In this document: positions 1 through 4,136 of the stretch, in pieces | Numbering within the stretch: position 1 is the stretch's first letter | How the letters are laid out: each line of letters starts with the position of its first letter | Source of the DNA: Arenimonas sp. | GTDB taxonomy: Bacteria > Pseudomonadota > Gammaproteobacteria > Xanthomonadales > Xanthomonadaceae | Length of the DNA stretch: 64,000 nt | Direction: 5' to 3' | Assembly: GCF_044353605.1 (NCBI RefSeq) | Contig: NZ_JBILBO010000008.1 | Coordinates: forward strand, 3,706-67,705 | The notes under the pieces: model-generated | Database searches by the model: none | What the model was told of the DNA's origin: nothing | The model's input: only the letters and a program-made list of their open reading frames with translations | Made by a program: the position numbers and the translations under genes

Positions 1-1080
1 CCGCCAATAAGACTGCACCCGCAGACCTTCGGCCAGTGCGCGGTAGTCGATGTATTGCCGGTGCCATTCACGGCGTTTGGCCACACTGTTGATGCCGATG
101 CCGGCCAGGAAGAACAGCAGGAAAAGGTAAATCATCACATCTTTGGCCATGATGTCCGAGTACATGATGAAGGCGTAACCCATCAGTGCAGCGAGGACGT
201 AAGTGGCGAGAAGGATGCGGCTAACGCGTCGCCGGTATGTCGTTGCGAGCCAATCGGCACCGCCGAAATAACATCCGATCGGACAATCGGTATCCCCCAG
301 GCTTCCGGCTTTTACGATTTCTTCGCGGTACTGTTTGCAATCGTGCTGGTATTCGATTTGCCGACGGAACATGGTGTTGAAGGAGTCCGGCATACTTTTG
401 GAGGGCTGTGCATCATCGCCCGAGATCAGCCAGCGGCATTTCTCGTTGATGTCGGTCTCACTGCTCTGGCGTCCGGCCGGAATGTGATACACCAGTGACT
501 CTTCGTCCAGTCCGAGATTGCCAATGGCGGTCTGCCGGCGGTCGATGGTGCCAGGCAGTGTTCCGTGGAGGTGGTATTCGACGACTTGGGCGGTGCCTCC
601 GAAGTGTCCGTTTTCCGATCCATCCCACAATGCCAGCAGGATATGACAGTGGCTTGAGGTGAACATGCCGGCAAGCGCATATTGTCTGTTGCGCGCGTAG
701 CCGCCATGGCGTATGTCGTCAGGACTCCGGAGGTCCTGAAACGCGAGTTCGAGGCAGGCGCTCAGCGAAAGCTGTCTGTCGAATTCGATCAGTTCGGCTG
801 GGTCGTCGAAATCGCTGCGGTAGAGCGTTGCCGGAACCGGCAGCGCGGCAATCACCCTGATGCCCATTTCGAGCGCGATGCCGGCTACCAGTTGATCGGC
901 TCCTGCCGCCAACGGGCACAAGACCGTCAGCGGCAACTCCGGATAATCCTGCCGCAGCTGGTCGAATAGTCCATGGACCTGCCTTTTCAGGCGCGGTAAT
1001 TCGGTCTCGCGCAGATTCCTATGCCCGGTCACGCCAATGACAAGGCCCGCAGTCTCCATGGGTTGATGTGTGTCAGCCAT
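1..1080 (-). CDS. SLOG-domain protein fused to SLATT-like transmembrane domain (3'-truncated by window edge)
   Basis: Manual translation from ATG at 1080 gives 360 codons with no stop: MADTHQPMETAGLVIGVTGHR...LAAGADQL...LLALWDG...GGTAQVV (SLOG motifs), then two hydrophobic helices and WHRQYIDYRALAEGLRVQ (SLATT-like). Absent from the ORF track. An alternative start is at 1059. Confidence 0.8.
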   Translation of the reverse strand, partial: MADTHQPMETAGLVIGVTGHRNLRETELPRLKRQVHGLFDQLRQDYPELPLTVLCPLAAGADQLVAGIALEMGIRVIAALPVPATLYRSDFDDPAELIEFDRQLSLSACLELAFQDLRSPDDIRHGGYARNRQYALAGMFTSSHCHILLALWDGSENGHFGGTAQVVEYHLHGTLPGTIDRRQTAIGNLGLDEESLVYHIPAGRQSSETDINEKCRWLISGDDAQPSKSMPDSFNTMFRRQIEYQHDCKQYREEIVKAGSLGDTDCPIGCYFGGADWLATTYRRRVSRILLATYVLAALMGYAFIMYSDIMAKDVMIYLFLLFFLAGIGINSVAKRREWHRQYIDYRALAEGLRVQSYWR

Positions 1081-1089
1081 GATCGGATA

Positions 1090-1500
1090 TTATTGGTTCA
1101 CAATCCGGGGATCGCATTTCAGAGTCTCCCCGGTTTGTTTGTTCCGAAGGTTTATTTGGTAATAGACATCCGCCGGGCCGGTGTTGGCATTGAAAATATT
1201 GAGCACGTTGCCGTTTCCGCCGGCCGTTTCTCTGATCTGATCCGAGCCCGGACCCGTGAATGTGGTCGGTTCGAAAACCATGTCATCACCATATAAAAGC
1301 TCGATCTGGATTTTCTTGCCACCTGTTTTCTGCATGACCTCGACGTTGCCGTAGCCATCCGTGCCGCCGCTGAACTGGCAGCCATTGATGTTGAGCTCGA
1401 CTTTGAAGTCCGGCGCATTGCCATTCTGTGCTGAGGTGCTGCTCGACACGGCAGCCATCGCCAAAGCGAGGACAAGGATTTGTGTTTGACTGATTCGCAT
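1090..1500 (-). CDS. Small secreted beta-rich protein ending CDPRIVNQ (DP-EP-like)
   Basis: ATG at 1500 follows an AAGGA RBS. Signal peptide MRISQTQILVLALAMAAVSSSTSA. Paralog of 1590-1928. The track start at 1584 is probably too long. Confidence 0.75.
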   Translation of the reverse strand: MRISQTQILVLALAMAAVSSSTSAQNGNAPDFKVELNINGCQFSGGTDGYGNVEVMQKTGGKKIQIELLYGDDMVFEPTTFTGPGSDQIRETAGGNGNVLNIFNANTGPADVYYQINLRNKQTGETLKCDPRIVNQ

Positions 1501-1589: not shown

Positions 1590-1928
1590 TTATTTATTCA
1601 CGACCCGCGGATCGCAGAGTACATCGGGGCCTCCGTTCGAGTCGCCGACGATGACCGTATATTTGACATCGGCCGGTGTTCGGCAATTGTCGTCGATATC
1701 GACCCGGCGCTCATTGCCCTTGATGTCGAAGCTGAAATTTTCCAGGCCACTGCCTTGGAATTGGACATCCTTGATGAAGTAGTTCGATGCCGCATTCAGC
1801 GAGACGTGGATTTTCGACGGCCCCTGGCCGACCGAATTTTCGACATTGCCGTTGCCTTTGTTGCCGCCGGAATACTGGTAGCCGCCGTTCTGTACGGATA
1901 ATGAAACCTGCTGATCTGAGTTAGGCAT
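1590..1928 (-). CDS. Small beta-rich protein ending CDPRVVNK (DP-EP-like), no signal peptide
   Basis: AGGAG RBS; starts 1 nt after the upstream stop. Shares SGG..G.GNVE, PADV.Y and CDPR.VN with 1090-1500. Confidence 0.8.
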   Translation of the reverse strand: MPNSDQQVSLSVQNGGYQYSGGNKGNGNVENSVGQGPSKIHVSLNAASNYFIKDVQFQGSGLENFSFDIKGNERRVDIDDNCRTPADVKYTVIVGDSNGGPDVLCDPRVVNK

Positions 1929-1929
1929 C

Positions 1930-4041
1930 TTAGTTCTCCTTAGAGGGGGTGGTGGGTGAAGCCGATGAAACCAAAAAACCGGACTCGGTAGGATCCGGAA
2001 CGAAACGGGGGTCTTTGTAGCCGGCCTTAGACAATTCGGATTCGATTTCTTCCGCTTTTGCGGCTTGGCTGAGGCTGATTGCGATCAATCGTCGGATGGG
2101 ATTGAAATCAAAAATCCGGATGGTCTGGCTGTCCAGAAGCTTGGCTGTCTCGCGCCAGGTATTTTCCGCCTGGCTAGCCTGGCCATCGGCCATCTGCGCA
2201 GAACCAAGAATCAAGACCGATTTCGCCAATTCCGCGACAAGCAGGGGGGATTGGTCGGATTCTTTAAGCAGAGCGGTAACCAGGTTGCGGCTCGTTTCCG
2301 CAGAGATGATGGCTTCTTTGGTTCTACCGTTCTGGAGTATACGCAATGCTTTTTCACGATGCATTCCGGAAAGTATGATTTTATTTTTGGTATTTGAAGG
2401 GTCCTTCGAAATAAGTGTGTCTACTCGGCCAATCAAACCATCTAAATCAGCATCATGGCTGTTCGACCAGCCGCCACGGGGAGTCATCGACAGTCGAAGT
2501 AATTCGGCCTTGTACAGCACCTGAAGCCAATCGGCATTATTCGGATCCTTTTCAGTCAACATTGAAAGAATTCGCAGCGACTCCGCATTGAGGCGTGCGG
2601 CGGAGTCGACATCGCCGATATAGAGTTTTGCGTCGGTCTGGAAGGTCATGTTGGACGCAAAAGTAAAGGTTGCCCGCGCATTCTCATCTTTCAAGTAAAT
2701 CGGACGAAGCAGCTTGGCAATCTCGGTGAAGGCCTCATCGCTGCCGGAAAGATCACCAAGATCCATTTTGCTCGAGCCAATCCAGGACCAGGCTTCCGCA
2801 AGGCTGTAGGCAAGCTCGATGTCATCCGGGGTCTTGGCCAGTTCCTCGGCATTGATGTCGCGGCTGAGGATGAAGTTGTCGAGAGCGACGCGGGTGTTTC
2901 CGCGCGCGCGCGCCATACTGCCGAGATTGGAATACGCATAGGAAAGCTCCATGTTGTAGATCGAGTTTCCTGGGTCTCGTTCGAGGAGCTCACGGCTGTA
3001 CTGCATGTAATTCTTGAAAGCGTTTTCTGCGAGCTTCAGATCGCCACGCTCCCATGCGACATATCCGACCCAGAATTCAGCTTGTCCGAGCTCAAACAGA
3101 TTGTCATTGTTTTTAGGGTCGGCTTTGTAAAGGGCCTGCATCTGCTTGAGCGACTCTTCGAAGGCGATCAGTGCGGCCTTCAGGTCGCCTTTCGATTTGC
3201 GCACTTCGCCGATCTGATGCAGGGCCTTGCCGCGCTCGCGCAGTTCCTTGGGGGTGCCGCGGTCACCGAGCGTAGCGAAGTAATTCATGGCCTGATCGCC
3301 GATGGAGTCCAGGATTTCGAGTTTTCCGATGGGTTCAAGCCGTTCGCGCAGGTCGCCGAGCATGAAACCGATCAGGTTCTCGGCCTGGCTGCGGCGGATC
3401 TCTGACTCACGCTTGGCATTCAAGGCATAGACCGCCAGGCCGATAGTCAGCATCGCGATTAAGACCGCGCCGGCCGCCAGAATCGACCAGAACCGCGCCT
3501 GTCGCTGCGCGTCGCGGCGCTTGAGATCATCAACGCCGACATTCAGCAGGCCTGCCGCGATTTTGAGCATCGCATTGCGTTTGCCGTCACCGCTTGGAGT
3601 GGCATCGGCGGCCAAGGGCTCATGGATGATGTTGCCGTTTTCATCCTGTAGGATTGCGGCCGGAAAGGCACAGTGCGGGGATCGCGGATCCGGACTGCCG
3701 GCCGCCAGAAGACAAAAAATGCGGTCGCCACAGCCGGAGGCCCGGAAGCGGCGAATTTCCTCGTTGACCCAGTGCGAGGCACGTGCCGCCGGAGTACAGA
3801 TGACAATCAGCGCATCCGAGTCGTCCATGGCCTTGCGAATCGACTCGGACAGATCGCCGCCGGAGGCGAGTTCGTCACGGTCGCGGAAAATCGGGAAAAG
3901 TCGGGCGGGGAGATTCTGCTGGCTTTGACGCAGTGATTTCGGCAAGCGGTAGCCTTCCAGTGCACGCTGAAGCCAGCGCGCCCAAGCCTCGTCGCTGTGG
4001 CTGTAACTGATGAATGCCCTGTAATGCCGTTGAACCGCCAT
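1930..4041 (-). CDS. TIR domain - transmembrane helix - TPR-like repeat protein
   Basis: N-terminal AFISYSHSD, IFRDRDEL and SHWVNEEI (TIR motifs with catalytic-type Glu); hydrophobic FWSILAAGAVLIAMLTIGLAVYAL; long helical repeat C-terminus. Confidence 0.85.
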   Translation of the reverse strand: MAVQRHYRAFISYSHSDEAWARWLQRALEGYRLPKSLRQSQQNLPARLFPIFRDRDELASGGDLSESIRKAMDDSDALIVICTPAARASHWVNEEIRRFRASGCGDRIFCLLAAGSPDPRSPHCAFPAAILQDENGNIIHEPLAADATPSGDGKRNAMLKIAAGLLNVGVDDLKRRDAQRQARFWSILAAGAVLIAMLTIGLAVYALNAKRESEIRRSQAENLIGFMLGDLRERLEPIGKLEILDSIGDQAMNYFATLGDRGTPKELRERGKALHQIGEVRKSKGDLKAALIAFEESLKQMQALYKADPKNNDNLFELGQAEFWVGYVAWERGDLKLAENAFKNYMQYSRELLERDPGNSIYNMELSYAYSNLGSMARARGNTRVALDNFILSRDINAEELAKTPDDIELAYSLAEAWSWIGSSKMDLGDLSGSDEAFTEIAKLLRPIYLKDENARATFTFASNMTFQTDAKLYIGDVDSAARLNAESLRILSMLTEKDPNNADWLQVLYKAELLRLSMTPRGGWSNSHDADLDGLIGRVDTLISKDPSNTKNKIILSGMHREKALRILQNGRTKEAIISAETSRNLVTALLKESDQSPLLVAELAKSVLILGSAQMADGQASQAENTWRETAKLLDSQTIRIFDFNPIRRLIAISLSQAAKAEEIESELSKAGYKDPRFVPDPTESGFLVSSASPTTPSKEN

Positions 4042-4136
4042 GCCTTTTATCGTTCCCCTAGGCCCCCGTGCCTTGGCTAATACTACCCTTGAATCAAATG
4101 CTTGGGGCTGTATCAGGAATTATTCTTGAAAAGGGC

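Follow-up and report, generated by a model that had tools for sequence, protein, structure and literature searches.

We describe a membrane-anchored TIR protein, P0001, encoded near the start of a 64,000-nucleotide stretch of an Arenimonas sp. genome (contig NZ_JBILBO010000008.1; hereafter the window, whose numbering is used unless another locus is named), and the conserved gene set to which it belongs. P0001 joins an N-terminal TIR domain, through a single predicted transmembrane (TM) helix, to a long region of TPR-like repeats. Its gene is followed by genes for two small DP-EP-like proteins (P0002 and P0003, hereafter the partners) and for a four-TM protein, P0126, in which a SLOG-like domain precedes two SLATT-like modules. 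Genome-level co-occurrence, adjacency and synteny that persists in distant members give strong evidence that TIR-TM-TPR, partner and SLOG-SLATT form a functional unit. We put slightly better than even confidence in the reading that P0001 is the sensor and signal generator of a Thoeris-like three-component membrane TIR module, in which a TIR-made messenger would act through SLOG on a SLATT pore. A preliminary description of this DNA had treated the TIR gene alone; its account of the architecture stands, but the conserved module with a DP-EP-like protein and SLOG-SLATT was missed.

We searched 151 genomes of the same bacterial family with tblastn and hidden Markov models (HMMs), counting full-length TIR-TM-TPR homologues. 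The TIR-TM-TPR and SLOG-SLATT genes were found together in 30 genomes, each without the other in three, and neither was found in 115 (Fisher p about 7e-25, without phylogenetic correction). Each of the three genomes with only SLOG-SLATT contained a single other TIR_2 gene. In G108 and G079 this gene belonged to a second family of TIR-TM-TPR proteins, described below, and in G123 it was cut by a contig end. One genome with only TIR-TM-TPR had a divergent SLOG-like neighbour, and a genus-mate without SLOG-SLATT had no TIR_2 gene either. The genome carrying P0001 (2.0 Mb in 36 contigs) was found to have exactly one TIR_2 gene and one SLOG-SLATT gene, both in the P0001 operon.

The four genes of this operon lie head to tail on the minus strand, in the order TIR-TM-TPR, two small paralogues and SLOG-like/2xSLATT, with gaps of 1, 89 and 9 nucleotides (nt). 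Thoeris candidates are recognised by a TIR gene and a putative effector in one operon. This arrangement was found here, and the distance between the two genes was no more than a few hundred bases in about 21 of the 30 co-occurring genomes; in the other nine they were unlinked. Two gene orders were observed, TIR>partner>SLOG and SLOG>TIR>partner, and in distant members (about 34% identity) the three genes were still together, in both orders. Among 36 loci from species-representative genomes, a partner homologue was located immediately downstream of TIR-TM-TPR wherever the sequence sufficed (about 24 loci, TIR identity 48-95%), and SLOG-SLATT was adjacent in seven, upstream or downstream depending on the locus.

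The P0001 reading frame comprises 703 codons uninterrupted by a stop, and its start methionine is the one used in 30 aligned homologues. More than 4,400 database proteins matched P0001 and an architecture of about 700 amino acids (aa) was common to the best 120 of them, so that, on this comparison of sequences, P0001 is a real conserved gene and a chance open reading frame (ORF) is ruled out. The Pfam family TIR_2 (PF13676) matched residues 10-110 with 53 bits against a cut-off of 28, and ThsB_TIR (PF08937) matched with 34.1 bits against 21.2, both above the thresholds for membership. In addition, NCBIfam gave a partial match to the type III Thoeris TIR, and PADLOC gave weak partial matches to ThsB and SAVED-TIR (E 4e-7 to 2e-5). 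An AlphaFold2 model of P0001, built from an alignment of 30 sequences, had a mean predicted local distance difference test score (pLDDT) of 82 and placed an alternating beta/alpha TIR fold at residues 9-166 (pLDDT about 70-86). The intact glutamate of the WVNEE motif, pointed out in the preliminary description, corresponds to E95 of W91-V-N-E-E95. S89, W91, V92 and E95 were invariant in the 30 homologues (49-93% identical to P0001), while E94 was variable. E95 aligns with the glutamate of the W-x-x-x-E motif in ThsB TIRs (WVRYE, WCPWE, WIQKE and WVPHE) listed in a supplementary table of a Thoeris preprint (bioRxiv 10.64898/2025.12.03.692087). The P0001 TIR domain is probably enzymatically active.

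The single TM helix near residues 185-207 and the helical repeats behind it, both proposed earlier, held up on analysis. The maximum of the Kyte-Doolittle 19-mer profile was 2.4, at residues 184-207, and the second-best peak reached 1.5; the 119 homologues likewise showed one hydrophobic peak. In the AlphaFold2 model, the TM segment belongs to one continuous helix spanning residues 170-206. Structure prediction of the repeat region gave 22 helices across residues 213-672, mostly with pLDDT >90, and Foldseek matched this region to TPR superhelices, such as LGN/Pins, OGT and designed consensus TPRs. One repeat scored barely over the Pfam cut-offs (TPR_2 28.2 against 27, TPR_8 26.4 against 25.7), and a P0001-family profile matched consensus TPR proteins among PDB sequences. 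The TPR assignment was thus obtained both from an HMM score above threshold and from a superhelical helix-hairpin fold. Single-sequence and profile searches of the PDB found no solved close relative of P0001, only TPR matches and a marginal match to the L6 TIR. Outside the TIR domain, the juxtamembrane helices were the most conserved stretch of P0001 among the 30 homologues. At the C-terminus, residues 670-680 (window about 2002-2034) contain a near-invariant A-G-[YF]-x-D-P-R motif followed by a disordered tail; it resembles the C-D-P-R tail of the partners, which may be a coincidence.

We judged membrane topology from hydropathy, charge, Cys content and domain logic. P0001 is likely a type II single-pass inner-membrane protein, N-in/C-out, with its TPR superhelix of about 460 residues in the periplasm. 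First, a signal peptide is missing from the 183 residues ahead of the TM helix, and this helix, being the only one, separates the two halves. Second, the TIR, kinase and DNA-binding heads found in front of this type of TM-TPR region (see below) all need cytoplasmic substrates, namely NAD+, ATP and DNA. Third, the TPR part is poor in Cys, as is typical for envelope-exposed domains: 119 homologues had 0.10 Cys per 100 aa in the TPR part, with a maximum of one per protein, compared with 1.74 in the TIR part, a 17-fold depletion. Fourth, the net positive charge is slightly greater on the N-terminal flank of the TM helix (+1.9 versus +0.7). Both flanks of P0001 are basic, as first noted (+5/-3 on the N side, +4/-3 on the C side). 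These four grounds favour the periplasmic repeats of the preliminary description, but the partners without a signal peptide argue against a simple picture of a periplasmic ligand.

The two partners are paralogues. The ATG of P0002 lies 1 nt past the TIR stop codon and is preceded by AAGGAG, and the protein ends in C-D106-P107-RVVNK. P0003 has a signal peptide (MRISQTQILVLALAMAAVSSSTSA, followed by Q), a Cys pair and the C-terminus CDPRIVNQ. The mechanically called ORF for P0003 (1090-1584, 164 aa, ATG at 1584) is too long by 28 spurious N-terminal residues; we placed the start at the ATG at 1500 because AAGGA precedes it and all 16 homologues are 136-137 aa long. The AlphaFold2 model of P0002 is a confident beta-sandwich (pLDDT 92). 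Its best Foldseek match in the PDB was SO1698 of Shewanella oneidensis (E 5e-8, probability 1.0, TM-score 0.75, with 0.71-0.77 across the SO1698 structures), full-length and co-linear, and the runner-up fold families reached a TM-score of 0.55 or less. A viral fold library gave only generic Ig-like matches, also at 0.55 or less, so the partner is no evident mimic of a phage protein. The PDB entries of SO1698 (3N55 and 3NJF-3NJN), among them D116A and P117A mutants, bear 'aspartic peptidase' in their titles. SO1698 (DUF1888, now Pfam DP-EP, PF08985) reportedly cleaves its own chain between Asp116 and Pro117, a result attributed to Osipiuk et al. in 2012.

The partners share with SO1698 a beta-sandwich of the same size and an Asp-Pro pair a few residues from the C-terminus. 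Unlike SO1698, they carry the motif C-D-P-x-[IV]-x-N, in which P107 was invariant and C105, D106 and N111 were at least 90% conserved among 99 aligned sequences; of 146 representative clusters examined, most had the motif at the very C-terminus. Sequence similarity to SO1698 is insignificant: profiles of 31 and 99 partner sequences gave no significant match to it, and the profile search of the PDB reached E 0.5, though the alignment was co-linear. The Pfam DP-EP cut-off was not reached by the partners (best E 0.015, in 5 of 31 members), and Pfam and NCBIfam scans of them found nothing above threshold. We therefore call the partner DP-EP-like, since the modelled fold and the C-terminal Asp-Pro motif agree while the HMM does not, and its self-cleavage is putative. 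We know of no receptor-partner role for SO1698.

About 80% of the partner family starts straight at the first beta-strand (MPNxxxxxLDxRN...) without a signal peptide, and about 19% has a signal peptide or lipobox. The P0001 operon holds one of each kind, P0002 without and P0003 with a signal peptide. The Cys pair of the exported paralogue (TCxF...CDPR) would be compatible with a disulfide. Partners of the cytoplasmic type have C-x3-C-D-P or a single Cys.

The P0126 gene extends past the window start, and the full gene (G000:C24:3094-4785) encodes 563 aa. An N-terminal Rossmann-like domain, whose GVTGHR and AAGADQ motifs look SLOG-like by our reading of the sequence, precedes two 2-TM modules (residues 279-357 and 427-549). 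These modules gave matches to SLATT_3/DUF4231 and SLATT_1 that were below the cut-offs (NCBIfam SLATT_1 31.9 against 41 and SLATT_3 22.1 against 45; Pfam SLATT_1 21.7 against 26.3). No SLOG HMM matched P0126 itself. A relative 39% identical in the N-terminal domain matched the YAcAr/YspA SLOG family with 27.4 bits against a cut-off of 28.2 (E 3e-6). PADLOC gave one weak match, to PDLC00695 ('2TM' effector, E 6e-3). Some relatives of P0126 are longer, about 838 aa (P0155, P0185 and P0194; some from metagenome-assembled genomes (MAGs) of Woeseiaceae), owing to an insert of about 270 residues that separates the SLOG-like domain from the first SLATT module and had no Pfam match.

The same membrane and repeat cassette was found behind other output domains. 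A Steroidobacter MAG (locus L038) encodes a 918-aa Pkinase-TM-TPR protein with 37% identity to P0001 over residues 213-680, a near-identical juxtamembrane motif (RRSQAEGLIGFMLGDLRERLEPVGKLDVLD...), the same TPR region and a partner gene downstream of it. This agrees with the earlier remark that TM and TPR tails also follow Ser/Thr kinase domains in bacteria. Within the same bacterial family as P0001, we found proteins of 1,100-1,200 aa that combine Trans_reg_C, a winged helix-turn-helix (wHTH) domain, with nSTAND1, a TM helix and a TPR region of the P0001 type, and behind at least 4 of the 17 such genes examined lay a gene for a divergent partner with the C-terminus CDPQ[MV]xNDP. These proteins are membrane-bound STAND transcription regulators. 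The presence of the same partner behind kinase and regulator heads shows that it tracks the TM-TPR module, not the TIR domain. The use of one cassette of TM, TPR and partner behind such different heads also supports the N-in/C-out receptor.

These components could be connected in the following pathway. An input at the TPR/partner side would be relayed through the TM helix and the conserved juxtamembrane helices and would bring TIR domains together; as the preliminary description suggested, this clustering may be driven by ligand binding. The TIR domains would then convert NAD+ to a messenger derived from ADP-ribose (ADPR), which would bind the SLOG-like domain of the neighbouring four-TM protein. 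Its two SLATT modules would open or assemble a pore, leading to membrane depolarisation, after which cells would stop growing or die, as they do in Thoeris-like abortive defence. The DP-EP-like protein would be the obligate accessory of the receptor, acting as ligand, co-sensor or regulator, possibly via cleavage at its invariant Asp-Pro. The Thoeris-like reading is supported by the operon shared by the genome's sole TIR_2 and sole SLOG-SLATT genes, by the invariance of E95, and by the precedents for SLOG and SLATT in Thoeris types I and VII. In type I, the SLOG domain of the SIR2-SLOG protein ThsA senses TIR-made 3' cyclic ADPR (3'cADPR), and in type VII the SLATT effector ThsH responds to TIR-made canonical cADPR (Yirmiya et al., bioRxiv 10.64898/2025.12.03.692087).

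Several observations weigh against this reading. The SLOG and SLATT labels of P0126 depend on sub-threshold HMM matches. 'SLOG and 4TM' is one of 29 putative Thoeris configurations, and two operons of this configuration, from Streptomyces and Nitrospira, gave no phage defence in E. coli (bioRxiv 10.64898/2025.12.03.692087). The TM-TPR cassette also feeds ordinary signalling heads, and the locus adjoins lexA-recA and an amylase gene with no recognisable defence island. If the TPR region is periplasmic, the roughly 80% of partners that have no signal peptide would be unable to reach it via the Sec route; if the partner is bound on the cytoplasmic side instead, its target would be puzzling, since the heads differ. 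In addition, the module is often kept in all sampled species of a genus, so that a housekeeping signalling role fits at least as well as phage defence.

Such a role is the alternative that survives best. With identical biochemistry, the TM-TPR region and the partner could form a general sensor of the envelope or the cell state that drives a graded channel response without suicide. A physiological envelope role is favoured by the conservation at genus level (all sampled species of genera g46, g34, g7 and g50 have the module), by the housekeeping neighbours (lexA-recA-recX-alaS, cinA and amylase) and by the fact that a kinase and a wHTH-nSTAND1 regulator employ the same sensor; the module has also been kept in a streamlined 2.0-Mb genome. 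A defence role is favoured by the TIR+SLOG and TIR+SLATT precedents, because the characterised bacterial pairs are all anti-phage. The patchy distribution in the family (about 1 genome in 3, 31 of 64 genera) also speaks against a purely physiological function, as does the gain and loss of SLOG-SLATT among close relatives, three of which (L006, L010 and L013) are without the gene at the same locus. We regard the physiological alternative as rather improbable, while taking it seriously.

Alternatively, the TIR domain could be a stand-alone effector that depletes NAD+, making P0001 a one-protein transmembrane sensor and killer, with SLOG-SLATT independent or merely co-regulated. Many bacterial TIRs are indeed NADase effectors and not makers of signals, nine loci of close relatives (L006, L009-L014, L016 and L017) keep TIR-TM-TPR and partner without adjacent SLOG-SLATT, and the two genes can be unlinked, as noted above. 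However, co-occurrence at the genome level is nearly complete (30 of 33), the unlinked cases included, and the genomes with only SLOG-SLATT still have a TIR_2 gene, which encodes a membrane TIR-TPR protein in G108 and G079. Moreover, a nucleotide signal is the sole evident input of a SLOG domain. This explanation therefore appears unlikely.

The shortage of signal peptides could be accommodated by a more speculative version of the receptor model, which we consider something of a long shot. The receptor would read its own encoded ligand: the self-cut partner, or the freed P-x-[IV]-x-N tail, would bind the periplasmic TPR region and act as a compartment-breach alarm that fires the TIR messenger and the SLOG-SLATT pore. 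A cytoplasmic partner would meet the outside TPR region only when the inner membrane is breached, as might happen through phage holins, through injection or when kin cells lyse. Exported and lipoprotein partners would then represent a derived form that is already in position, as in the P0001 operon, which carries one partner with and one without a signal peptide.

We consider it very improbable that the TPR region and a signal-peptide-less partner meet in the cytoplasm, with the hydrophobic segment a tether or not spanning and the ectodomain idea wrong: the partners mostly lack a signal peptide and yet track TM-TPR whatever the head, and basic residues are present on both TM flanks, but a single 24-residue helix with a Kyte-Doolittle score of 2.4 must leave the C-terminal part across the membrane from the N-terminal part, none of the TIR, kinase and DNA-binding heads could work in the periplasm, the TPR part is almost Cys-free, some partners (about 19%) are exported or lipoproteins, and the second TIR-TM-TPR family has a post-TM segment resembling periplasmic TolB-N-like domains.

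Returning to the Thoeris-like reading, we compared the module with characterised systems. As in Thoeris, a ThsB-type TIR with a conserved Glu is encoded beside a SLOG-like and SLATT-type membrane protein, and the predicted logic is the same. Unlike the small, soluble ThsB proteins characterised so far, the P0001 TIR heads a 703-aa membrane receptor with a predicted periplasmic TPR region, and the module has a third conserved gene, the DP-EP-like one, and no obvious defence island. The TIR sensors of the characterised Thoeris systems that we found in the literature are all soluble and detect infection inside the cell. P0001 and P0126 did not match any curated PADLOC defence-system model beyond weak or partial hits. 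The P0001 TIR family was not found in the portion of Table S1 of the Thoeris preprint that could be consulted (bioRxiv 10.64898/2025.12.03.692087), and we found neither a TM-anchored TIR carrying a TPR ectodomain nor a third gene of DP-EP-like type mentioned in that preprint or in the other TIR literature searched.

P0001 also invites comparison with Toll-like receptors (TLRs). Both are single-pass proteins with solenoid repeats on one side and a TIR domain in the cytoplasm, and ligand-driven clustering of TIR domains is plausible for both. In P0001, however, the repeats are all-alpha TPRs in place of a leucine-rich repeat (LRR) ectodomain, and the TIR domain is N-terminal in a type II protein without a signal peptide, whereas TLRs are type I proteins with a C-terminal TIR. 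The enzymatic Glu is retained in the P0001 TIR, whose output is probably a small-molecule signal, whereas a TLR recruits adaptor TIRs. Given the TPR repeats and the reversed domain order, P0001 is to be seen as an analogue of TLRs and not a relative; nothing beyond the TIR fold points to shared ancestry. According to a 2024 survey of TIR systems in E. coli, bacterial TIR systems seem to lack membrane features like those of TLRs (PMC11350192).

One-component TM regulators with periplasmic TPR regions (Ser/Thr kinase-TM-TPR and ToxR/CadC-like wHTH-TM-TPR proteins) have a homologous TM-juxtamembrane-TPR region and the same downstream partner; the output of P0001 differs from theirs in being a TIR domain, presumably making a nucleotide messenger in place of phosphorylation or transcription. 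The RRNPP receptors (Rap/NprR/PlcR/PrgX and phage AimR) offer a looser parallel, because there too the gene for a TPR receptor stands ahead of a small gene, and the conserved extreme C-terminus of the small protein could supply a short peptide ligand. RRNPP receptors are soluble cytoplasmic proteins of Firmicutes and their phages; their output is an HTH or a phosphatase activity, and their pro-peptides are re-imported after secretion. In contrast, P0001 is membrane-bound, its partner is a folded domain of 110 aa, and no processing or transport genes are present. We therefore treat this resemblance as an analogy only.

Variants of the module were observed in other genomes. Some genomes had a doubled module (L020 9780-13320 and 14551-15864; G095 C22 36775-46415), in which TIR-TM-TPR and partner are joined by two SLOG-SLATT genes in tandem and by another TIR-TM-TPR gene, a paralogue of the first. 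In G108, an orphan SLOG-SLATT gene with 62% identity to P0126 was found (L076 5145-6911), and no TIR gene was present within 5 kb. Its neighbours are a patatin-like gene, a 390-aa ORF, which we guess to be a glycosyltransferase, and genes that are GNAT-like and SodC-like by appearance. The second, unrelated TIR-TM-TPR family was represented by L079 2705-4702 (+) and L080 3728-7252 (-), in which the TM helix is followed by a VAVLPFxNxSGD...YFSDGLSEE segment and then by TPRs; we presume that the VAVLPFxNxSGD segment is like periplasmic TolB-N-like domains. This family occurs where the SLOG-SLATT gene is unlinked. Judging from these sequences, membrane TIR-TPR receptors seem to have had more than one origin.

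On one side of the P0001 operon lies a divergent lexA-recA-recX-alaS cluster, on the other a convergent amylase gene. A TAGTAT hexamer upstream of the TIR start was invariant in nine aligned intergenic regions and is a possible -10 element of the operon promoter. Farther upstream, a perfect palindrome of 19 bp, TTAGTAGTAATACTACTAA, which we take to be of the Xanthomonadales LexA-box type, overlaps the lexA -10 (TAGTAT, from a promoter scan) and start, directly before the lexA ATG (4174), and looks like an element of lexA autoregulation. Control of the TIR operon by the SOS response, considered because lexA is divergent and 130 bp away, was unsupported: the palindrome sits about 75 nt upstream of the conserved TAGTAT, and adjacency to lexA is confined to the closest clade.

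Table 1 Features of the P0001 operon and of related genes in other genomes.
Feature	Position	Strand	Basis
TIR-TM-TPR gene P0001, 703 aa, first gene of the operon	1930..4041	-	ORF and translation, Pfam, homologues, AlphaFold2 model
TIR domain, residues 9-166, predicted cytoplasmic	3544..4017	-	TIR_2 53 bits, ThsB_TIR 34 bits, AlphaFold2 fold
Glu95 codon, candidate catalytic Glu of W91-V-N-E-E95	3757..3759	-	invariant in 30 homologues
Single TM helix, residues 184-207	3421..3492	-	Kyte-Doolittle peak, 119 homologues
Juxtamembrane helices and about 11 TPR-like hairpins, residues 213-672, predicted periplasmic	2026..3405	-	AlphaFold2, Foldseek, TPR HMMs, Cys depletion
DP-EP-like partner 1, P0002, 112 aa, without signal peptide	1590..1928	-	AlphaFold2, Foldseek, synteny
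DP-EP-like partner 2, P0003, 136 aa from ATG at 1500	1090..1500	-	AAGGA 6 nt before ATG; homologues
SLOG-like/2xSLATT 4-TM gene, P0126, first 360 codons in window	1..1080	-	completed from the contig
TAGTAT hexamer, possible operon -10, about 40 nt upstream of TIR start	4080..4085	-	invariant, 9 aligned intergenic regions
Perfect 19-bp palindrome TTAGTAGTAATACTACTAA	4154-4172		invariant in 9 related loci
Trans_reg_C-nSTAND1-TM-TPR genes with divergent DP-EP-like gene	L064 2046-5393; L073 2023-5397; L069; L070	+ (L064, L073)	one partner with signal peptide

What is new here is a putative Thoeris-like form of TIR signalling in which the sensor is a predicted membrane receptor of a kind not described before and a third component takes part. 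If the reading is true, a TIR enzyme wired through the membrane to extracytoplasmic repeats would be the closest functional counterpart of a Toll-like receptor in bacteria, and TIR nucleotide signalling would be able to report envelope events. If the TPR region is cytoplasmic or the TIR domain inactive, the finding shrinks to an ordinary uncharacterised multidomain protein. The module is a first biological context for the DP-EP self-cleaving fold. It also suggests that the two-gene 'SLOG and 4TM' operons may have failed in E. coli because a third component or the right membrane context was missing. As the cassette is common to TIR, kinase and transcription-factor heads, the identity of its input would explain a whole set of orphan proteobacterial receptors.

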